A stretch of 64,000 bases of DNA from a virus. The notes beneath the pieces were generated by a model that worked only from the letters and a program-made list of their open reading frames with translations, did no database searches and was not told the origin of the DNA. Numbering within the stretch: position 1 is the first letter of the stretch; each line of letters opens with the position of its first letter. The DNA lies in IMG/VR virus record IMGVR_UViG_3300044825_002891, positions 25,132 through 89,131 of that record; one strand, written 5' to 3'. Of the stretch, positions 6,877 through 63,040 are shown in pieces. The position numbers and the translations under genes are program-made.

Positions 6877-7478
6877 TGGCCGCGAATAACTTCTACCCCA
6901 CGTTCCTCGAAGACGAGGGTTTCATTCGTGGTCCGGCGCGTCTTATGTACTGCGCCGTGACACAGTCGTTCCCGACTGGCATCTCGCAGGTCGTCAACCT
7001 CTCGACGTACTCCGCGATGACGGGCTGGAACGACCTTGGCGCTACAAAGGGTGGCGTCCAGATCTCGATCAACAACACCGAAGAGTCGTTCGACGTGGAC
7101 CAGGTCTACGGCGACATCGACTCGCTCCCCACAGCGTGGGAGTGCTCGGTGTCCACGCAGCTCGCTGAGATGACGCTTGATCGTCTCACGTTCTGCTGGG
7201 AGGGCGGCCCGGTCACGACCTCGGGCGGCGAGAAGTCCATGGGCTACGGCACTCCTACGTCGTACACCCGCCGCCGCATTGCGGTGCTGTTCCAGCGCCC
7301 CAACGGCAAGATCCGCGCGTTCGTGTTCCGCAAGGTCCAGCGGTCCCCGCAGGAGTCCACGATCACGTTCAACAAGACCGGCGAGCAGCAGTCGGTGGCG
7401 GTGCGTTTCCGCGCCATCGCTGACCTCTCGGTCGCTGATGTCTACAGCCGGTTCTTCACGGCTTACGACCAGGTCTAA
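6876..7478 (+). CDS. Major tail (tube) protein
   Basis: GPARL, WNDLGATKGGV, DVDQ, LAEMTL motifs typical of siphovirus tail tube proteins. Confidence 0.85.
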   Translation: MAANNFYPTFLEDEGFIRGPARLMYCAVTQSFPTGISQVVNLSTYSAMTGWNDLGATKGGVQISINNTEESFDVDQVYGDIDSLPTAWECSVSTQLAEMTLDRLTFCWEGGPVTTSGGEKSMGYGTPTSYTRRRIAVLFQRPNGKIRAFVFRKVQRSPQESTITFNKTGEQQSVAVRFRAIADLSVADVYSRFFTAYDQV

Positions 7479-43733: not shown

Positions 43734-45002
43734 TTGGAATGGAACGACCATACCCGGAAACTCCTGCTTTCCTGCAAGACAGACGAAGACCTCAAGAAGA
43801 ACTTCCCCACAGAGAAACTATCTAACCTCAAGAGACGGCGCAGAGAGTTCCGCAGAGACGATGGTCTCCCCAGCGACACCGACTCGATCGGTAGACTGGC
43901 CAAGCTTCTAGAAGACGCTGACATTCCCCTTGAGGAGATCAAGTCTGTCAAGAAGGTGCGCCTGAACGAGTGGCAGATGGCGCACAAGGACGACAACGGC
44001 GAGGCTGTCGTTACTGATCTCAAGTCGGCCCAGATTGTTATTGAGCCGCGCTGGATCGACGGACCCGAGTGGCCTGTGGTTCAGCCCGCCAAGCCGACCG
44101 TCATCAAGCCCGCCAAGGTTCAGAAGAAGGACCTGACTACAAAGACAGCAGTCGTGCTGCCCGATCCTCAGATCGGTTACAGACGGGACATCCTGAGGGA
44201 GGACTATGACCCGTTCCACGATGAGCAGGCTATGGACGTTGCCCTGCAAGTCGTGAAGGAAACGCAGCCCGACGTGATTGTCAACCTGGGTGATCTGGTT
44301 GACCTGCCTGAGTTCTCCAGGCACCCGCAAGAGCCGGGCTTCGCCCGCACAACACAGCGCTCTATTGACAGAGCCCACGAGTGGCTGGCTCAGCAGCGCG
44401 CAAGCTCTCCTGACGCGCAGATTGTTCTGCTTGAGGGCAACCACGACAGGCGCCTTGAGAAGGCTATCGTGCAGAACGCTCAGTCTGCGTTTGGTCTACA
44501 GAGAGCCAACGTGCCCGAGAGCTGGCCCGTTCTTTCCCTGCCTTTCCTGCTGCGCATGGACGAGCTGGGCGTTGAGTACATCGAAGGCTATCCCGCCAAC
44601 ATCTTCTGGATCAATGACAACCTGGCCTGTATCCACGGCCACAAGTCTCGCTCCGGCGGATCAACCGCTGCGGCTGTGGTTGGGGATGAGCGATCGTCCA
44701 TCATCTTCGGACACATTCACAGAATCGAGCTCCAGCACCAAACGCGCCGAATAAGATCTGGTTCGAAGAACAATCTCGCTGCGTGTCCGGGCTGCCTGTG
44801 CCGTATCGACGGCGCGGTCCCGGGCTTCAAGTCGTCCACTGACATCTACGGGCGCCCTGTGCAGTCGTGGGAGAACTGGCAGCAGGGGATCGCTGTGGTG
44901 TCTTACGAAGAGGGAGACGGGTTCTTCCATGTGGAGCTTGTCCCCATCCATGGCGGGACCTGCATCTTCCGCGGCAAGACATACACGGCAACGCAGCTGT
45001 AA
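43734..45002 (+). CDS. Calcineurin-like metallophosphoesterase
   Basis: DPQ, LGDLVD, GNHD, HGH and GHIHR motifs. Confidence 0.88.
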   Translation: MEWNDHTRKLLLSCKTDEDLKKNFPTEKLSNLKRRRREFRRDDGLPSDTDSIGRLAKLLEDADIPLEEIKSVKKVRLNEWQMAHKDDNGEAVVTDLKSAQIVIEPRWIDGPEWPVVQPAKPTVIKPAKVQKKDLTTKTAVVLPDPQIGYRRDILREDYDPFHDEQAMDVALQVVKETQPDVIVNLGDLVDLPEFSRHPQEPGFARTTQRSIDRAHEWLAQQRASSPDAQIVLLEGNHDRRLEKAIVQNAQSAFGLQRANVPESWPVLSLPFLLRMDELGVEYIEGYPANIFWINDNLACIHGHKSRSGGSTAAAVVGDERSSIIFGHIHRIELQHQTRRIRSGSKNNLAACPGCLCRIDGAVPGFKSSTDIYGRPVQSWENWQQGIAVVSYEEGDGFFHVELVPIHGGTCIFRGKTYTATQL

Positions 45003-45250: not shown

Positions 45251-45737
45251 CGGGTTCGACACTCCGGTCGGCTGCGAGTGCGGAGACTGCAAGCGGTGCA
45301 AGAACCGCCTCAGGGCAGCGCGCTGGCGTGAAGCCAACCGCGAACGTGTTGATGCCTACAACAACGATCCAGCTGTGCGCGAGCGTAAGTACAAGACCAG
45401 CAGGGCTTGGAAAGAGCAGAACCCAGAGCGTGTCTCTGAGTACAGCAAAGAGTACAAGCAGCGCTCAGATGTGCGACAAAAGATTGCAGAACAGTGCCGC
45501 GTGGACAGACAGACTCCGGGTCTGCGCGAGAAGATCCGCGCACGCGAGACTGCCCGCGATGCGATCAAGCGCGGCAAGATGACACGGCGACCATGCGTGG
45601 AGTGCGGCGCCCCAGAGACAGAGGCGCACCATGAGGACTACTCCCGCCCTCTTGATGTGACCTTCCTCTGTCGGGCCTGCCACCTTGCCCTACATCAGTC
45701 CGCGAGGCAGGACTCGAACCTGCGACCCTCCGCTTAG
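45240..45737 (+). CDS. HNH endonuclease-like protein
   Basis: CVECG...AHHEDYSRPLDV..LCRACH...H motif; basic helical repeats. Confidence 0.8.
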   Translation: MVDNGFDTPVGCECGDCKRCKNRLRAARWREANRERVDAYNNDPAVRERKYKTSRAWKEQNPERVSEYSKEYKQRSDVRQKIAEQCRVDRQTPGLREKIRARETARDAIKRGKMTRRPCVECGAPETEAHHEDYSRPLDVTFLCRACHLALHQSARQDSNLRPSA

Positions 45738-45771
45738 AAGGCGGACGCTCTATCCACTGAGCTACTCGCGG
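45699..45771 (-). tRNA. tRNA-Arg(TCT)
   Basis: CCGCGAG/CTCGCGG acceptor, TCCGC-CT TCT AA-GCGGA anticodon arm, GGTTCGAGT T-loop. Confidence 0.95.
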
Positions 45772-46230: not shown

Positions 46231-46872
46231 TCAGGTGTAGTTGCGCTTGACGAGATCGTACACGGTCTGATGTGCCCAATAGCGTGCGCCATTGGGGGTC
46301 GGAACTTCTGCGCGGCTCAGGTGCTCTGCTATCTGTCTGAATGTGAAACCACGCTCGCGCATCTCCCGGACCATGTGCTTGATCTCATCTGGGATCTGCG
46401 TCTGGCTGCCGATCACCACACCCTGGCGCTTGCGCTCAGCCATGCCCTCCTTCGTGCGCATGCTGATCATGTCCCGCTCAAACTCAGCGAACGAGGCAAG
46501 GATGTTGGCAAGCAGCTTGCCGAAGGGTGTGGAGAAGTCAATGTCCGGCTCAAGGATGATCAGGCGCCAGCCCTCGCGCTGCGAGGCGGCCATGATGTCT
46601 GAAAAGTCCTTGATCGATCGCGACAGGCGGTCAAGCTTGGTCACCATGATGCCCGCAACCTCACCTGAGCGCACCATGCTCAGGCATCGCTCAAGTCCGG
46701 GCCTGCTCATGTTCTTGCCGCTGTAGCCGTCGTCGGCAACGATCTCAACGAGGTCAAGATCGCGGTACTCGCACGCGCGGGTGATGGACGCCCTCTGAGC
46801 GTCCATCCCCGCACCATGCGCTGCCTGATCGGCCGTCGAGACTCTGATGTAGCCGACCACGCTGTCGCTCAC
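46231..46872 (-). CDS. Small serine recombinase (resolvase/invertase family)
   Basis: GYIRVST..Q, SG...RPGL, KLDRLSRS and AEFER..I..RT motifs; C-terminal HTH; GTG 46872. Confidence 0.9.
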   Translation of the reverse strand: MSDSVVGYIRVSTADQAAHGAGMDAQRASITRACEYRDLDLVEIVADDGYSGKNMSRPGLERCLSMVRSGEVAGIMVTKLDRLSRSIKDFSDIMAASQREGWRLIILEPDIDFSTPFGKLLANILASFAEFERDMISMRTKEGMAERKRQGVVIGSQTQIPDEIKHMVREMRERGFTFRQIAEHLSRAEVPTPNGARYWAHQTVYDLVKRNYT

Positions 46873-47231
46873 GTCAGCCTGCTCCCGTCGGCCATGATCT
46901 GCGAGGGCTCGTCGCGCGTGAGCTTGAAGTCCGTGTTGCCATTCTCTTCCGCGTGACGCTGACACTCGCGGGCGTGATTTCCCTCCAGTGCCATCCAGGT
47001 GCGGATGTCCACCTCGGCCTCGTCGCCAGAGACCCACTCTGCGGTGAGCGACTGGAAGAACCCAGCGTGGTCGTCGTGACACCCGAACATGACCGTGAAG
47101 CCCAAAGCGTCTTCCGCGAGGGTGACGAACGCATCTGGAACCTCGGCCTGCATGCGTCCGTTGATGTGGTGGAACGCGCGAAGGGCGTCCGGGTACTCGT
47201 CGTATGATCGTGCGTAGAAGCTGTAGTGCAT
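46869..47231 (-). CDS. Hypothetical protein
   Basis: Coupled ORF, start MHYSFY. Confidence 0.6.
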   Translation of the reverse strand: MHYSFYARSYDEYPDALRAFHHINGRMQAEVPDAFVTLAEDALGFTVMFGCHDDHAGFFQSLTAEWVSGDEAEVDIRTWMALEGNHARECQRHAEENGNTDFKLTRDEPSQIMADGSRLT

Positions 47232-51185: not shown

Positions 51186-51548
51186 TCAGATCCCACCTTC
51201 CGGCCACAGAGCGTTCTGCATGCTGTCCAGCATGGGGCCCACGAAGTGCGCCCACACGGACTCCATGCCGCTGACGCCCGCCCATTCGTCCAGACGCACG
51301 GCCACGTTCATGTAGTCCACGCCCGTGCGATCGGACAGGATGCCAACCGCGCGGCGCAGGATGGGGTCATCCAGCACACCGCCCTCGGCGTACAGGGATG
51401 CCTCGCGCTCGGTGGCTTGCCGCACGTGCAGGCCGCCCTCGTTCTGCGGATCGCTGTCGGCCTTGTAGTTGACGCAATCGTCCTCGTAGTCAGACCAGAA
51501 CACGGGCTGCTTGAGGTACGGGTCCCACACGAAGTATGTCTCGCTCAC
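51186..51548 (-). CDS. Acidic hypothetical protein
   Basis: SD GAGGAGG; GTG 51548. Confidence 0.6.
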   Translation of the reverse strand: MSETYFVWDPYLKQPVFWSDYEDDCVNYKADSDPQNEGGLHVRQATEREASLYAEGGVLDDPILRRAVGILSDRTGVDYMNVAVRLDEWAGVSGMESVWAHFVGPMLDSMQNALWPEGGI

Positions 51549-52033
51549 GATGCCTCCTCGGCATGTTGTGTGTCCTGCACGAACAGGATCTCGTCCCAGT
51601 CCTCCTGTTGGATGTCCGGCAGGGATGCCATGAACAGCTCCGTCTGATGCGCAAGCATCTTGCGCACTTTCGCGAGCTGATCCGGGCCTTTGGGCTTGAT
51701 GCGCTTCATGCACCGCTTGGGTCCAGTGCACAGGACGTGCAGCACGAAGCGATCGATGCCAGCATCTCTGGCCATGGACATGATCTCGCGCCTCGCAGAT
51801 GTCTGCGTGTTGTTGGCGTCGATGATGATGTCCTCATCAGCCTTGATGCTTTCCAGCATGTCCTTGTACGCGCGCTGCCACTGACCTGGGCCCATGCGCG
51901 GCCCGTCGGCAACGTCCTCTGCGTACTTGGACAGTTCGATCAGGTACGCATCTTCGGGCAGGTTGTCATGCTCCTCTGCGTACGTTGTCTTGCCAGCCGA
52001 TGGCAGGCCCATGATCATGTGGAGCTCTGCCAT
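51545..52033 (-). CDS. P-loop kinase (AAA_33 / polynucleotide kinase-like)
   Basis: GLPSAGKTT, IIIDANN and C..R motifs. Confidence 0.75.
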   Translation of the reverse strand: MAELHMIMGLPSAGKTTYAEEHDNLPEDAYLIELSKYAEDVADGPRMGPGQWQRAYKDMLESIKADEDIIIDANNTQTSARREIMSMARDAGIDRFVLHVLCTGPKRCMKRIKPKGPDQLAKVRKMLAHQTELFMASLPDIQQEDWDEILFVQDTQHAEEAS

Positions 52034-52284
52034 CAGCGCATGTCCTCGGGCTCGCATGCGATCCCGTTGTCGTTTGCATCGATGTCCGTCCTGTCATCGT
52101 CACCGATGTAGAACGGCATGCCATCACTGACGTACTCGCACCTGTCGTGCACGATGTCAGCGGGCGGCTTGACGTTGAGGTCGGGCTTTGTGGTGAACTT
52201 GCCCCACAGCCAGATGACTGCGAAGACGATGCCAACCACAAGCGCCGTGCGCTCAAGGGCCTTGCCGAAGCCGATGTTACTCAT
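52033..52284 (-). CDS. Membrane protein with Excalibur-like Ca-binding motif
   Basis: TM ALVVGIVFAVIWLW; C-terminal DANDNGIACE. Confidence 0.6.
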   Translation of the reverse strand: MSNIGFGKALERTALVVGIVFAVIWLWGKFTTKPDLNVKPPADIVHDRCEYVSDGMPFYIGDDDRTDIDANDNGIACEPEDMR

Positions 52285-58194: not shown

Positions 58195-58785
58195 TCAGGC
58201 GTTGAGGAATGCGTCGATGTCGTTCTGCGTGGGGTCGTTGTGCTCGCTGTCCCACAGCAGGTACACGGCCTTGTGGACCTCCACCGTGTCGCGCACGTGC
58301 TTGGCCGTGTAGATCCCACCCTCCGGCTGGGTGCGCATCCACTTGACCCACTCGTTCAGGGTCTTGTGGCCCCAGTTGGCGCTGTAGCCGATGAACATGG
58401 ACAGCATCCACGCGGACAGGTGCGTGCCCTTGTTCGGCTTGTCCGGGGCCGTGTACACGCCCGTGTTCTCGTCGTACGTGCCCACGTCGTTCAGGCACGG
58501 CCTGCCCACGAACACCTCGAACGTGCGCATGCGCCCGTACATCTCGGCCACGTTGTCCTCCGTGACCTTGCCGATGCCCGTGAGCATGAGCACGCCCGCG
58601 AAGGGCGGCCCCATGAACGACTCCCCGTGCATGATGTTGTCCAGCAGTTGCACGATCGGGGGCTGCTGCTCCCACTCGGGCGTCTCCCACACGGTCGTGG
58701 TCACGTCGGGGGTGTCGATGCTGTCCCAGATGGGCTTGAGCATCTTGTACGCGGGCGTGTCGCCCCAGTTGCAGGTCAGAGGCAT
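58195..58785 (-). CDS. Hypothetical protein
   Basis: MPL..NW, GIG.VTEDN..E...R and FIG..AN motifs; SD AAGGAG. Confidence 0.7.
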   Translation of the reverse strand: MPLTCNWGDTPAYKMLKPIWDSIDTPDVTTTVWETPEWEQQPPIVQLLDNIMHGESFMGPPFAGVLMLTGIGKVTEDNVAEMYGRMRTFEVFVGRPCLNDVGTYDENTGVYTAPDKPNKGTHLSAWMLSMFIGYSANWGHKTLNEWVKWMRTQPEGGIYTAKHVRDTVEVHKAVYLLWDSEHNDPTQNDIDAFLNA

Positions 58786-58856
58786 TGCCTCTCTCCTTCC
58801 TGCCGCATGTGCGGCTGTGCCCCCGGCTCCTGTGCCGGGGACAGTTGTGGTGTGTG

Positions 58857-59153
58857 TCAGACGATCCGGGCGCCGCCGCCGCGCTTGTCGCGGTGGTAGC
58901 GCATGTTGATGCCCAGCACGCGCAGGGCCTTGTTCACGCCGTTCTGATCGGACACAGAGCCGCGCCCCGTGTTGACGCGGGTCAGCGTGGAGCCCGCCTC
59001 GCTCTCCAGCCACTCCAGCATGCAAGTGCTGTAGTGCCACAGTTGAAACACATCGTCCATGAGGGCGCTGCCCTCGCGGTTGACCACACGGGTGACGCGC
59101 CACGGGCCTGCCTCGCCCTCGCGTGCCTCCACAATGCTTTCGATGCTGCTCAC
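58857..59153 (-). CDS. Hypothetical protein
   Basis: HY.T.ML and GSVSDQNG.N motifs; SD AAGGAGG. Confidence 0.65.
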   Translation of the reverse strand: MSSIESIVEAREGEAGPWRVTRVVNREGSALMDDVFQLWHYSTCMLEWLESEAGSTLTRVNTGRGSVSDQNGVNKALRVLGINMRYHRDKRGGGARIV

Positions 59154-59434
59154 GACAGGACCTCCTTGTCCTCGCGGATGTACACCTGGGCGAGGCCCGT
59201 GTCCATGTGGATCTCGTTCTCCTCCGACGAGCACATGTACTGCTCGCGGATGTCCAACACGACCCAGCGCGCGTCGGCCAGTCGCTCCGCCTCGCGCTCC
59301 ATGTCCTCGTGCGTGAGGCCCTTGAGCCACACGCTGGGGCCCGTGGCGGGCCACAGAACCATGTCGAACAGGTCCACGCCCACGTGCTCGGGCTTGCGCG
59401 CGTCCCCGCTGTGGGGGCTGATCTTGGTGCTCAC
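59150..59434 (-). CDS. Hypothetical protein
   Basis: SD AAGGAG; GTG 59434. Confidence 0.6.
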   Translation of the reverse strand: MSTKISPHSGDARKPEHVGVDLFDMVLWPATGPSVWLKGLTHEDMEREAERLADARWVVLDIREQYMCSSEENEIHMDTGLAQVYIREDKEVLS

Positions 59435-59513
59435 TTGCTGTCTCCTTCCGTCGCACTCCTGTGTGCGACGTGCCCGGGGGCATCCAAGCCCCCGGGCGGT
59501 CGTGTGTGTTGGG

Positions 59514-59750
59514 CTAGAAGCCCATGTCCTCCATCGCGCATGCGATGGCGTCGATGTCATCACCCATGATCTCGTGCATGATCGCGGCCGTGCTGGCCGT
59601 GTCCTTCAGCGGGAAGCCCCGCTTGCGGTGCCTCTCGCAGCACGAGCACTTGACGATCGTGCTGTCCTTGACGGTCAGCCCGTATGCCTCGGGCTCGTGC
59701 AGGCAGTCGATCTCGTGCGGCTCTCCGCACGTGATGCAGTACAGGTCCAT
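59514..59750 (-). CDS. Small zinc-binding protein
   Basis: MD.YC..CGEP...LH, CSCC and GDD.D....MED motifs. Confidence 0.65.
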   Translation of the reverse strand: MDLYCITCGEPHEIDCLHEPEAYGLTVKDSTIVKCSCCERHRKRGFPLKDTASTAAIMHEIMGDDIDAIACAMEDMGF

Positions 59751-59767
59751 GTGTCTGTCCTCCTGTC

Positions 59768-59983
59768 CTAGAAGTTGCCGTCGCACATGTAGTGCATGCG
59801 CTCGTTGCGGCCGTACACGATGACCTTGGCCTTGCACGTGTGGGCGACCTTGCGGGCGCACACGATCGCGCTGTCGAGGTCAGCGAAGTCGCCCTCGGCC
59901 AGCGTGCGCGTGAACTTGTTCATGCGCCCGTTCACGTTCGTGATGTCCAGGTACAGGGGCTTGCTGTGGGTCTTGCGGGCCAT
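59768..59983 (-). CDS. Hypothetical protein
   Basis: SD GGGAGG. Confidence 0.55.
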   Translation of the reverse strand: MARKTHSKPLYLDITNVNGRMNKFTRTLAEGDFADLDSAIVCARKVAHTCKAKVIVYGRNERMHYMCDGNF

Positions 59984-60030
59984 GATGGCCTCCCTCCTGC
60001 CGCTTCTGTGCGGCTGTCGTGTGGGTGTGT

Positions 60031-60237
60031 TCACTTGCGCCGTGCGGGCTGCACGGTGCGCGGCCTCTGGCCGATGTCGGGGTCGCACACCTTCGCGGTG
60101 CGCTTGGTCTTGCATCGCATGGGCTGCGGTGCCGAACGGACAGGTGTGTCCTCGTACACAGTGACCGTGACGAACGCGCCGTCCCGGTACACGAGCCTGT
60201 GCCCCACAATCTGGGGCTGTCGCTTGCGTCGTCGCAT
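60031..60237 (-). CDS. Small basic hypothetical protein
   Basis: SD AAAGGA; MRRRKRQP; first ORF downstream of the ncRNA candidate. Confidence 0.5.
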   Translation of the reverse strand: MRRRKRQPQIVGHRLVYRDGAFVTVTVYEDTPVRSAPQPMRCKTKRTAKVCDPDIGQRPRTVQPARRK

Positions 60238-60282
60238 GTGAGTCCTTTCTGTAGGTGATTGCGACGTGATGTGTTGATGTGA

Positions 60283-60422
60283 AGGCATGTGCTGGAATCG
60301 AACCAGCGAGCAGCCGCGGGGGACTATCGCGATTGTGTGTGCACTCTTGGGTGCGTGCGCTCCATGCGCTTGTGCGTGTCCGTACCGTGGTGTGTCTGCG
60401 CCCCGCCTTGGGGTCACATGCC
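60283..60422 (-). ncRNA. tRNA-like module with expanded anticodon domain
   Basis: 7-bp acceptor GGCAUGU/ACAUGCC, D-like arm CCCC-AAGGC-GGGG, T-arm GCUGG-UUCGAUU-CCAGC; ~90-nt insert in place of the anticodon arm. Confidence 0.7.
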
Positions 60423-61019
60423 GTGTTGTCTTGCCGGTGTATGTGCTGACGTGTGCAGACATGCAGAAACCGCCGTGAGAGACAACAGCCTCACAGCGGG
60501 TGTGTATGCACTTCCCTTGTCCTTAGGCCCACACATGCACGACGGTCAGTCATCACATGTAGGGATCACGCAGGCAGGCACGGGCTAGCCGCGTCAGATG
60601 GCCTGCGATGTATGCCGATGTAGCCGCGCTCCGCCTGTGCACAAAGACACCACAGGCGACGGGCCTCGTCGCATACATGTTCCCGATACGCCGCGCACAC
60701 ACTTCACACGGCGCCCTCATTCTCCTGTCATGTGTGGGACAGGGTGCTGGGCTACCAGCGGCAGGTCTGCGGGCTGTGTGTGGGAGTCGCTGCGACGACT
60801 ACAACCACACACATGAGGCCCTTGTGGGACAACAGCCTGCTCCGCATGTCCGTGTGTGCGTCGCTGCCGGGGCAGCGGACTGACCGCAAGTGTGCGCTTG
60901 CGGCCTGTGGGGCGGGCCTTGAGCCTCGGTCCCCGTACACACGTGGAGTGCGGATGTTCGTGTGTCGCACGTCGCTGGGGAGCGGGGCTGACCCCGCCGC
61001 CGACAGCGACCACCGAACG
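60283..61019 (-). ncRNA. Candidate ~740-nt structured non-coding RNA
   Basis: Follows a promoter, lacks a convincing ORF, many nested 6-10 bp stems, ends in the tRNA-like module. Confidence 0.55.
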
Positions 61020-61025
61020 GCCCGC

Positions 61026-61054
61026 AGAGTATCACTCCCCCGGCAGGCCGTCAA
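61026..61054 (-). promoter_or_regulatory. Leftward sigma70-type promoter
   Basis: TTGACG-N17-TACTCT with TGn extension. Confidence 0.75.
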
Positions 61055-61567
61055 GTTTGGCTCAACCAAGCGGCATTCCCGGGGCTCCCCTCCCCCACGC
61101 GCACGCAGGCACACACAACGCAGTCACGCACACACGCTGCGTGTGTGTCATCTGATGAATCAGCATGTACGCGAGAGCGCGCATGTATGACACATGCACA
61201 CGTGTCCGCGCCCGCAGACAGGAATGCACGTGTGCCCGCACACGCGAGCTCGCGCGCACATGTGCGTGTCCAGGCACAGGCACACGTGTCCACACGCGCG
61301 ATCGCGCACGAATGAGCCTAATACAATCTGGTCGCGCCTACACGACGCATGTGCGTACGAATGAGCCTAATAACTTCTGGTCGCGGGTACACAGGGCGCC
61401 CGCACGTTCATGTACGCGCATGTATGTGCGCAGGGGGAGAGAGTGTGACACAGTGCATCATGTGTGCGCGTGCGTGCGTGCACACGAATGAGCCTATTGT
61501 CCTCTGGTCGCGCGCCCGAGCGCGCACGCACACGCGAGAGACAGAGAGACCGAGGGCCGATAGTACG

Positions 61568-61639
61568 ACGCGCACACGCACATACGCACACATGTACGCA
61601 CGTGCGCGCGTGTGCACACATGTGTACGTGTGTGTACGC
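61568..61639. repeat. Perfect 72-bp alternating purine-pyrimidine tract
   Basis: Checked base by base; shorter RY tracts occur throughout 61090-62200. Confidence 0.9.
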
Positions 61640-61684
61640 CCCGACGGTGAGACTTTGGCTCAACCATGCGGCTTCCGCGGAGTG

Positions 61685-61693
61685 TGCTACGCT
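61685..61693 (+). promoter_or_regulatory. Rightward extended -10 promoter
   Basis: TGcTACGCT followed by the same initial transcribed sequence as the leftward promoter. Confidence 0.6.
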
Positions 61694-61742
61694 GCGGGCC
61701 GTTCGGTGATCCCCACCGACGAAGTGCCAAGGAGGCACACAG

Positions 61743-61976
61743 ATGGACATCAGACTACACACACAGACGCACGCGGCTGCGACAGAGGTTCGTCATCGCC
61801 TGATCCGGCAGGGCCACTACCTCACGGGCGCAGGCGAACTGATCCTGCGGGACACGGCGGAGTTCTTCGCCACGCATGGCGCGCACGTCGCGGAGGGCAG
61901 GCGCATGACGTGGCAGTCCGACGACATCAATCGGCTGCACCTGTGCATGCTCGACAACATCATGTACGCAGCCTGA
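61743..61976 (+). CDS. Hypothetical protein
   Basis: SD AAGGAGG; GC3-biased. Confidence 0.65.
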   Translation: MDIRLHTQTHAAATEVRHRLIRQGHYLTGAGELILRDTAEFFATHGAHVAEGRRMTWQSDDINRLHLCMLDNIMYAA

Positions 61977-62253
61977 CACGCAAGCGCGACACACGCCCGC
62001 GCCATGAGTGAGCCTATTCATTCATGGTCGCGGGCGTTTGTGTGTCTGCGTATGTGTGGCAGGAATGAGCCTAATAGTTTCTGGTCGCAGGCGCAGATCA
62101 TGCACACACACGCACACACAGAAAGACCCCGACCGTGGGGGGGTGTGCGCGTGACGTATACATACGCGTCGCGTCGCGTTTCGTCTGCGACGTGTGCACG
62201 GCGGGCGGCGGGCCCCGACCGTGGGCCCCGGAAGCGGCGCCAGCGCTGGCGAC

Positions 62254-62282
62254 TTGCGGCCCGGGCCCCGGTCGTGTATCGT
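62254..62282 (+). promoter_or_regulatory. Sigma70-type promoter
   Basis: TTGCGG-N17-TATCGT upstream of the 62333 gene. Confidence 0.6.
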
Positions 62283-62332
62283 CCCTACCGTCAGCAATGA
62301 CGCTGACACAGAGTCATAGGAGACTCACTCAC

Positions 62333-63040
62333 ATGTTCAGCATCGATCAGATCGCACAGGCCGCTGCCAACGCCGCGTACGACGCGGTGATGGCGCTCGC
62401 GGAGGGCCACACGGCCCCGGCGGCCCCGGCCCTGCCCACGCAGGCCCCGGCCCCGCAGGCGGCCCCGGCGCAGGCCACGGGCACGGACGGCGCCGCGGAT
62501 GCGTTCGCGGCCTTCCGGCTCGCGTTCGGTGTCACGTCGTCCGTGTGGCGCGCGGTGGCCCCGAAGGGCTCCGACGTGCGGGCGCAGGTGCGGGCCGCCT
62601 ACGTGGGCGGCTTCGATCGGCAGGCCCACAAGGGCAACGGGGCGCAGGCGCTCGCGGCCTTCGGCGCCAACGTCCCCGCGATGCAGGCGCTCGCGGCGGC
62701 CGTCAACGCGGCGGCCGGTGTCCCCGCGGCGGCCCTGCAGGCGCAGGCGGCCGTGACGCAGCCGCAGGCCCCGCAGGCGGCCCTGTGGGGGATGCCCGCG
62801 GAGCAGGCCCCGGAGCAGGCCCCGCAGGCGACGAAGCCCCAGCCCACGGGCACGGTGGCCCTCAACGGCCTGAAGCGCTACGCCAAGTCGCAGGGCTGGC
62901 CGATCCCGAAGCGGGCCGCGGACGTGCCGGGCACCGTGTACGGGGCCGCGTTCGGGTACGTCGAGGCGCAGCGGGCGCAGGGCCTCCCCTGCGACGCGGA
63001 CGCGGTGGCCACGTACATGGCGAGCGTCCTGCAGAAGTAG
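62333..63040 (+). CDS. Ala/Pro/Gln-rich protein with possible Lsr2-like C-terminal domain
   Basis: SD AGGAG; near-exclusive GC3; LKRYAKSQGWPIPKRAADVP. Confidence 0.7.
   Translation: MFSIDQIAQAAANAAYDAVMALAEGHTAPAAPALPTQAPAPQAAPAQATGTDGAADAFAAFRLAFGVTSSVWRAVAPKGSDVRAQVRAAYVGGFDRQAHKGNGAQALAAFGANVPAMQALAAAVNAAAGVPAAALQAQAAVTQPQAPQAALWGMPAEQAPEQAPQATKPQPTGTVALNGLKRYAKSQGWPIPKRAADVPGTVYGAAFGYVEAQRAQGLPCDADAVATYMASVLQK

Follow-up and report, generated by a model that had tools for sequence, protein, structure and literature searches.

A predicted large structured RNA with a tRNA-like 3′ module at the head of an early gene block in an uncultured phage

What does the phage represented by IMG/VR virus record IMGVR_UViG_3300044825_002891 encode between a predicted early promoter and the first gene of its leftward early block? 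The stretch of DNA that we analyzed, called the window here, is the final 64 kb (64,000 nt) of this 89,131-bp record. The region in question lies between the early block, ~14 kb of small leftward genes (60237 to ~45780) with a strong bias in G+C content at third codon positions (GC3), and a ~1-kb gene-poor zone with divergent promoters. A first-pass annotation, made from the letters of the DNA, had proposed that it specifies a possibly new large non-coding RNA (ncRNA) with a built-in tRNA-like 3′ module. On balance, we consider it probable that the region does encode a genuine ncRNA of ~737 nt from an uncatalogued family, which would form the first part of the early leftward transcript, be released from it by processing, and act in trans.

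A protein-anchored scan identified a diverged uncultured phage, IMGVR_UViG_3300010885_043431 (L003), in which the order of elements is the same as in the window: tRNA, high-GC gene, repeat and purine-pyrimidine (RY) zone, promoter, RNA, and small basic protein. A neighboring protein of 194 amino acids, for which we found 16 homologues (ENA, Logan, JGI, NCBI), is 47-51% identical between the two phages. The RNA aligned over its full length, with 144 substitutions in 734 ungapped columns (80% identity), and across the 13 kb that we compared, no other DNA match was as long or scored as high as the one in its region (79.6% over 840 nt, 682 bits; next match, 258 bits). This conservation sets in at the promoter, falls to 48% over the first 50 columns of the alignment, climbs to 86-94% across the core, and breaks off at the discriminator base that ends the acceptor stem of the tRNA-like module. 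A further variant, X13, was present as a 3507-nt contig from a wastewater metagenome run, ~97% identical to the window over 59677-61114; it was not used for modeling. The structural comparison rests on these two full sequences together with the one near-identical variant.

Retaining the local helices that were stable across folding settings yielded a curated structure of 169 pairs in 25 helices. All of these pairs (100%) are standard in both phages: 139 are invariant, 21 are changed on both sides, and 9 are changed on one side but remain compatible through G-U, so that none of the 30 variable pairs is broken. This is the covariation that had been named as a check on the proposed RNA. At least one compensated pair occurs in 16 of the 25 helices. 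When the 3′ partners were slid by 1-3 columns as controls, only 0-4 double changes were seen and 22-54% of the cells were paired; the slid-by-2 control remained ~50% paired because the RNA is rich in CACA and GUGU. Of the 209 pairs that RNAalifold predicted for the window and L003 together, 24 show changes on both sides, and the fold of the window alone, scored on L003, contained 22 doubly compensated pairs versus 2-5 in slid controls. As judged from the aligned sequences, at least 25 helices are shown to be maintained by compensatory evolution.

X13 carries 6 variable pairs within the RNA. Two of these, in hairpin P5, show double compensation, another 3 remain compatible, and the last, which closes a loop, is broken. 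Its other changes there, 6 substitutions and 1 deletion, all fall in unpaired columns. Two sets of long-range pairs from RNAalifold (315-321/601-607 and 327-339/565-576) were dropped, as changes in X13 break them and fit the local P7 hairpin. A loop-loop pairing, 270-277/537-544, for which the window and L003 show covariation, was rejected because X13 contradicts it at column 276.

Folding was also better than in dinucleotide-shuffled sequences, as the first-pass annotation had required, and in both phages it was better for the sense strand. In the window, z-scores were -3.35 (0 of 20 shuffles as low) and -2.48 (1 of 60) for the minus strand, compared to -1.26 and -1.10 for the plus strand; in L003 they were -4.73 for the sense and -2.76 for the antisense strand. 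Among the 169 curated pairs, 16 are G-U in the window and 18 in L003. An RNA on the minus strand is thus indicated by the G-U pairs, the one-sided G-U changes, the z-scores, the T-loop UUCGAUU, which is correct in sequence on this strand only, and the direction in which the promoter and the downstream genes point.

The claim that no credible gene follows the promoter held up as well. We tested 12 open reading frames (ORFs) in 60238-61190 on both strands and found none with gene-like codon bias: their GC3 ranged from 0.51 to 0.77, compared to 0.84-0.99 in the three genes just downstream. Across the RNA, the window and L003 differ by 9 insertions or deletions (indels) of 1-2 nt, and their substitutions are spread over the codon phases as 48/52/44. 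Frame-breaking indels, a lack of codon periodicity, and flat GC3 together indicate that the conserved entity is not a protein, and they speak against the region being translated as small ORFs.

At its 3′ end, the predicted RNA carries a module with several hallmarks of a tRNA. Its acceptor stem is 7 bp long, the loop of its T arm is of the GTTCRANYC type, and GG is present in its D arm. The D arm has 4 bp, with a two-base linker before it, a loop that reads AAGGC in the window and AAGGN across both phages, and 1 compensated pair. An anticodon arm with a 7-nt loop or a conserved anticodon is missing. In its position, we find a stem that closes a ~85-nt three-way junction, the sequence of this stem being unrelated in the two phages. 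The inner helices of the module contain 3 doubly compensated pairs. The sequence GGTTCGATTCC occurs without mismatch only here in the window and fits the motif GGTTCRANYCC.

ARAGORN made no call on the module in either phage at default settings; with a relaxed score and introns allowed, it found the module at the homologous place in both, read the anticodon differently, as Val(cac) for the window and as Glu(ttc) for L003, and put 'introns' at non-canonical positions. The Rfam tRNA model detected only the 3 real tRNAs of the window at its gathering score, and the module was not scored (nothing at E<=10 in 60200-61100). According to our structural model, the module is a tRNA mimic that keeps the acceptor-T minihelix and the elbow, has its anticodon arm replaced, and cannot decode.

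The remainder of the RNA is made up of the helices listed in Table 1. Seven of the nine helices proposed in the first-pass annotation are kept in L003, six of them with compensatory changes. Five of these six are 60884-90/60897-903, 60776-83/60805-12, 60632-39/60651-58, 60608-15/60671-78, and 60569-75/60601-07; the sixth, 60470-79/60490-99, is really 11 bp with two G-U pairs rather than 10 bp. The seventh, 60841-46/60949-54, is kept and invariant. The two others are weaker: 60715-20/60813-18 has one A-A mismatch in L003 as the alignment reads, and the pairing 60971-77/61004-10, seen in the best fold of the window by itself, is not preserved in that form in L003, whose corresponding segment pairs differently. 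Within P2, X13 changes the G-C pair at position 60854 to G-U.

The repeated motif that had been noticed is indeed present: within the RNA, GGCTGTTGTC is found at 60481 and again at 60828, and the rest of the 89-kb genome contains one more copy. The proposed pseudoknot partners, the repeated GGCUGUUGUC and GACAACA, are likewise both found, the latter directly 5′ of the tRNA-like module. GACAACA is invariant relative to L003 except for its last base (GACAACG). Because the bases of GUUGUC and GACAAC do not vary, covariation neither supports nor excludes the pseudoknot. The P9a loop contains a conserved palindrome, GGCUAGCC, at 60579-60593, which is the sole hint in the sequence that the RNA might assemble into homo-oligomers.

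Table 1. Coordinates of the predicted RNA, its parts and the flanking elements in the window
Feature	Position	Strand	Remarks
Whole ncRNA, ~737 nt	60283..61019	-	5′ end inferred from the promoter; 3′ end is the discriminator base of the module
Early leftward promoter (predicted)	61026..61054	-	-35 TTGACG 61054-61049, 17-nt spacer, -10 TACTCT 61031-61026
P1, 5′ variable hairpin region	60958..61009	-	48% identity to L003; hairpin with 2 doubly compensated pairs; exact pairing uncertain
Domain P2	60841..60954	-	Closing helix 60949-60954/60841-60846 plus 60937-60942/60854-60859, around P2b and P2c; closing helices invariant
P2b	60883-60904	-	2 doubly compensated pairs
P2c	60860-60880	-	1 doubly compensated pair
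Central block	60724..60840	-	46-nt stretch identical in both phages with the first AGGCUGUUGUC, then P4, P5, P6
P4	60776-60812	-	2 doubly compensated pairs
P5	60746-60759	-	Invariant between window and L003
P6	60724-60743	-
P7	60688-60714	-	7 doubly compensated pairs in total over P7, the P8 arm and the P9 arm
P8/P8a/P8b, branched arm	60608-60678	-	See P7
P9/P9a arm	60569-60607	-	See P7
P10	60528-60563	-	15-bp hairpin identical in both phages
P12	60507-60511/60453-60457	-	Encloses P11; 1 doubly compensated pair
P11	60470-60499	-	Loop with second CUGUUGUC; 1 doubly compensated and 1 one-sided change
GACAACA	60425..60431	-	Complementary to GUUGUC of the two repeated motifs; candidate pseudoknot partner
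tRNA-like module	60283..60422	-	L003 counterpart 6961-7102; each folds alone into the same shape
Acceptor stem, 7 bp	60416-60422/60284-60290	-	First pair G-C to A-U, compensated, relative to L003
T arm GCUGG-UUCGAUU-CCAGC	60291-60307	-	5-bp stem, loop UUCGAUU
Discriminator	60283	-	One base
10-nt box CAAUCACCUA	60252..60261	-	Follows the tRNA-like module and precedes the ribosome-binding site of the first early gene
First early gene, 68-amino-acid basic protein	60034..60237	-	GC3 0.84; start 45 nt past the tRNA-like module

With these dimensions (~737 nt, 25 helices, an integral tRNA-like module, and a genome that encodes capsid, portal, and DnaE), the predicted RNA has the features of a large ornate phage RNA. 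The three tests set for it in advance (folding relative to shuffled controls, covariation, and translation of the region) all came out in its favor, and on the sequence evidence the proposal of a possibly new class with a built-in tRNA-like 3′ module appears supported. None of the 4227 models of Rfam 15, run with permissive filters, matched 60200-61100 at E<=10. L003 gave only 4 chance-level rows (E 1.7-6.9, 9-16 bits), three from microRNA models and one a 17-nt tmRNA T-loop fragment. GOLLD, ROOL, OLE, raiA, and the other Rfam 15 families are thus without a match here. A full-text literature search found no description of such an RNA, with the supplementary tables of a catalogue of 10,006 candidate viral RNAs lying outside the search. 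That catalogue was built from IMG/VR (PMC10690425), and its supplementary tables might list the RNA.

Several known RNAs resemble parts of the predicted one. A tRNA-like acceptor/T-arm domain in which a large structured insertion replaces the anticodon arm is also the plan of tmRNA. Here, however, the third acceptor pair is C-G rather than the G-U that marks tmRNA and alanine identity, and most of the RNA lies outside the tRNA-like domain, not inside it. ARAGORN called no tmRNA or tag peptide, and Rfam gave no tmRNA match in the window and the 17-nt T-loop match, at 9.4 bits, in L003. In MALAT1/mascRNA-type 3′ ends and YrlA-type RNAs, a tRNA mimic serves as a processing signal on a long ncRNA or as a protein-docking module. 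Unlike the RNA considered here, these are eukaryotic or small stand-alone RNAs, and the corresponding Rfam models were unmatched.

The closest comparison in size and setting is with GOLLD and ROOL, tRNA-linked phage RNAs that form RNA-only cages (bioRxiv 10.1101/2024.12.08.627333). In that preprint, GOLLD is described as a large (often >800 nt), ornate RNA of phage and prophage genomes that was discovered in lake metagenomes and in many cases lies beside tRNAs; it has a linker that sometimes contains tRNAs, a variable 5′ part, and a conserved 3′ part. The RNA of the window shares these traits but differs in having no Rfam match and in carrying a non-decoding mimic fixed at its 3′ end, where GOLLD can have a real tRNA in its linker. 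ROOL is likewise a phage or prophage RNA, of ~600-660 nt, found near tRNA islands and with no known protein partner as that source presents it (bioRxiv 10.1101/2024.12.08.627333). Against this likeness stand the missing Rfam match, a different habitat and host range, and the fact that ROOL has no integral tRNA-like module.

For the module itself, a parallel is offered by the t-elements of plant mitochondria, non-canonical tRNA-like folds that contain GGTTCRANYCC, the search motif of Forner et al., within mRNA leaders or trailers (PMC1920247). In that paper, t-elements are linked to cuts by RNase Z and RNase P at mRNA leader ends: their ends coincide with mapped leader and mRNA ends attributed to these enzymes, CCA-like additions included, and the cox1 t-element forms the 3′ end of a leader RNA (PMC1920247). 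The module here, too, is a non-canonical cloverleaf with GGTTCRANYCC in a longer predicted transcript. In contrast to it, t-elements are organellar, stand alone, and measure ~70-75 nt; here there is an 85-nt branched insertion and a fusion to a 600-nt ornate RNA, and cleavage is only predicted.

Regarding the start of the transcript, the first-pass annotation had described a near-consensus promoter. Both boxes are present and are kept in L003 (TTGACA, 18-nt spacer, TACCTT), but near-consensus holds for the -35 box only, the -10 box matching TATAAT at 3 of 6 positions. Because of this, a scan of 59500-62400 with the E. coli sigma-70 consensus found 0 promoter-like sites. We infer promoter function at 61026-61054 from these boxes. 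A mirror copy of the -10 box and of the first transcribed bases exists in the genome: GCGGGCCGTTCGGTG occurs exactly twice in the 89 kb, on opposite strands. It is shared by two divergent promoters, at 61011-61031 (minus strand) and 61688-61708 (plus strand), each of which adjoins a direct copy of TTTGGCTCAACCA.

At the other end of the RNA, a terminator scan of 59500-62400 revealed a single terminator-like site, located on the plus strand inside the RNA region, and nothing terminator-like between the RNA region and the first early gene. The protein of this gene matched no Pfam family, and its L003 homologue begins 35 nt past L003's own tRNA-like module. The CAAUCACCUA box is identical in L003 (alignment columns 810-819), whereas the preceding ~20 nt are unrelated.

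The region was also represented in RNA libraries. Metatranscriptome assemblies X19 and X20, from two studies, contain a 207-nt contig (60737-60944) and 151-nt contigs (60710-60861 and 60844-60994), and these three contigs carry X13-type letters. Within 58500-62500, the sole good matches in X19 and X20 fall at 60710-60994. The flanking genes were left uncovered, which by the rule of this comparison does not count as a finding, and the runs had been selected by means of this stretch. The presence of the region in two metatranscriptome assemblies is weak evidence of expression.

Taken as a processed, trans-acting ncRNA, the element could work as follows. Host RNA polymerase would make the RNA early in infection, starting near 61019, and the RNA would fold while being transcribed. 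Host tRNA-processing enzymes would then recognize the tRNA-like module. RNase P is predicted to cleave on the 5′ side of G60422; past 60283, RNase Z or exonucleases would come into play together with the CCA-adding enzyme. In the fashion of t-elements, such cuts would free the folded RNA from the downstream message and set both of its defined ends. The message would be left with a new 5′ end ~45 nt (35 nt in L003) ahead of the start codon, just before the CAAUCACCUA box. The released ornate RNA, with or without the mimic, might then contribute in trans to host takeover by offering a scaffold or decoy to some factor with affinity for tRNA-shaped RNA, which is the least certain step. We favor a trans-acting role because of the analogy with GOLLD and ROOL and the early timing, and we hold the scaffold or decoy function with low confidence.

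A number of points weigh against this interpretation. The curated structure was selected on the same two sequences that score it, and the comparison comprises those two and a near-identical variant only. The window-alone fold breaks 36 of 71 variable pairs in L003, which means that the raw minimum-energy fold of the window is partly wrong. An antisense fold collects 18-19 double changes too, so that the choice of strand rests on the G-U pairs, the z-scores, and the context. The module has G at position 8, which is usually U in tRNAs, and C as the base before the acceptor stem. The RNA-library evidence amounts to three short contigs from preselected runs, and DNA contamination of such libraries is possible. 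Production of the RNA, its ends, and its cleavage are predictions from the sequence, and we found no link from the ornate body to any function.

One alternative is that the RNA is a cis-acting structured 5′ leader that stays on the early message and controls termination resistance, message stability, or translation of the first gene, its tRNA-like part being a protein-binding or stabilizing element rather than a cleavage signal. This would agree with its position directly between the early promoter and the ~14-kb leftward gene block, with no terminator-like site between, and with the conserved 10-nt box just ahead of the first ribosome-binding site. Nevertheless, we think such a leader unlikely. 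Known antitermination RNAs, such as put and nut, span tens of nt, not 740. Conservation that ends exactly at the discriminator base is expected of a processed end, and, according to the paper on t-elements, the enzymes that process tRNAs recognize a full acceptor-T minihelix and its elbow (PMC1920247). It seems highly improbable to us that the RNA belongs to a replication origin or primes replication in the manner of ColE1 RNA II, as a large folded transcript that arises beside the origin and is processed into a primer. The RNA does adjoin the 1-kb gene-poor zone with its divergent promoters, purine-pyrimidine tracts, and five 26-bp repeats (possible iterons), and the phage encodes its own DnaE, DnaB, and primase. 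However, the encoded primase makes priming by RNA polymerase unnecessary, a tRNA-like end has no role in ColE1-type priming, and the RNA points away from the repeat zone with its merely possible origin.

It is more improbable still that the RNA is a very divergent member of GOLLD or ROOL missed by the Rfam models. Size, ornate fold, phage origin, lake habitat, and the link to tRNAs are shared, and GOLLD, as described in the preprint, at times has linker tRNAs together with a conserved 3′ and a variable 5′ region (bioRxiv 10.1101/2024.12.08.627333); yet the permissive Rfam search of the window returned 0 of 4227 families at E<=10, and GOLLD and ROOL were unmatched in L003. Finally, we find it hardly credible that there is no RNA here and that the region instead consists of small ORFs in a row that are translated, or works at the level of DNA as an attachment site or as sites for packaging or binding. 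An attachment site can leave behind the 3′ part of a tRNA in a phage, and this phage has a serine recombinase gene at 46234-47082. Serine recombinases are, however, not typical users of tRNA 3′ ends, and a remnant would have no need for the 5′ acceptor strand and D arm to covary with their partners. Only a single-stranded RNA from the minus strand would account for the G-U pairs and for the one-sided changes compatible with G-U. As for small ORFs, frames of 40-120 codons can be drawn in the region, but the frame-breaking indels, the absent codon periodicity, and the flat GC3 noted above argue against their translation.

A processed, trans-acting ncRNA is thus the interpretation that we prefer. 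We also put forward, as a possible but doubtful extension, that it stands for a new class among the large ornate phage RNAs, one whose non-decoding mimic stays with the molecule for good and has work to do there beyond marking a cut, in the service of host takeover or counter-defense. In that case, the ~600-nt body could present its tRNA-shaped end to a host factor that senses tRNA shape, for example a tRNA-cleaving defense nuclease, a modification enzyme, or the ribosome; alternatively, a GOLLD/ROOL-like multimer could display several mimics. If true, the phage would have an RNA machine for host takeover or counter-defense in the first minutes of infection. Large, intricate ncRNAs are rare, and the known phage examples, GOLLD and ROOL, are still without known function. 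The predicted RNA is as large as these, strongly conserved, and found in lake metagenomes of many studies. It is also approachable by experiment, given its defined place first behind the early promoter and a tRNA-shaped end that predicts both RNase P/RNase Z cuts and the class of its partner.

How widespread is the element? The window stretch is present in 20 of 24 listed public runs from 15 studies, nearly all of them freshwater metagenomes; 5 of the runs are possible sources of the assembly. One freshwater run, X18, carries it at >=99%. In virus contigs, exact patterns taken from the RNA gave 0 matches for a 24-mer and, for two 19-mers, matches to the L003 record only. Scans of virus contigs with the 194-amino-acid protein, with its 18-row alignment, and with a 78-amino-acid zinc protein also returned only the L003 record. 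A scan of metagenomes recovered the same phage again (L006, 99.9% identical to L003) and a 1.2-kb fragment, and a protein scan of genome contigs found none. We searched four terminase-related virus records whole, all of them fragments that are 6-35% complete, and the RNA was in none (BLAST E 0.07-0.28; nhmmer --max, one row at E=7.7).

Three further candidates were discarded. A pattern match in a Chloroflexia metagenome-assembled genome (genome contigs) was only a 21-nt chance match, a T-arm motif in virus record L027 lies inside a long coding stretch, and a second 30-nt match in the L003 record is in coding sequence. In the X13 contig, 19 listed differences fall in ~550 nt of the downstream genes and 0 listed differences in 60190-60697, in a table that may omit ~5 of 41.

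The phage itself is distant from those in culture. Pfam searches identified a major capsid protein, a Mu-type portal, DnaE, DnaB, primase, and RecA among the record's proteins, and there is a 121-bp overlap between the record ends. Against 50,697 GenBank phage records, blastn (distant mode) of 59500-62500 found no match, nor did tblastn of the neighboring protein P0010. The same search with the terminase returned a single record, a Microcystis phage, at 27% identity, indicating that the phage has no cultured relative.

The zone next to the promoter has additional features. Five co-oriented bipartite 26-bp repeats lie in 61310-62088, reading on the minus strand as GCGACCAGA, 8 variable bases, and AGGCTCATTC. 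Four copies are kept in L003 (5149-5222 and 6052-6130), where they flank a small rightward gene. These repeats could be operators, iterons, or promoters of another polymerase. In both phages, the space between the divergent promoters is taken up by long, mixed tracts of alternating purines and pyrimidines with CA/TG/CG steps (61090-61650; 5760-6300 in L003). In X13, the 677-bp segment 61385-62063, which holds a rightward gene of 77 amino acids at 61743-61976, is replaced by 173 other letters, a natural cassette swap beside the promoter zone. Farther along, a plus-strand gene at 62333-63037, with no Pfam match at E<=0.01, is rich in Ala, Pro, and Gln; that kilobase has 73% GC, a strong hairpin follows the gene, and the gene is kept in L003.

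Elsewhere in the genome, two genes encode AAA_33/KTI12-like P-loop kinases (genome 622-1185 and window 51548-52057, minus strand; E 7e-19 and 4e-13), and a metallophosphoesterase gene is located at 43734-44999. Polynucleotide kinases and tRNA kinases share the fold of these two proteins, which makes a function in RNA-end repair possible; we found no tie of the two kinases to the RNA. The 60 phage proteins scanned against Pfam showed no RNA ligase and likewise no Ro/TROVE protein, nucleotidyltransferase, or RNase. At the far end of the early block, the serine recombinase gene (minus strand) encodes 283 amino acids with a Resolvase domain (E 1e-41) and a partial Recombinase domain, and it adjoins a tRNA-Arg at 45698-45771. 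Given this recombinase, the phage may be temperate or may carry an invertase.

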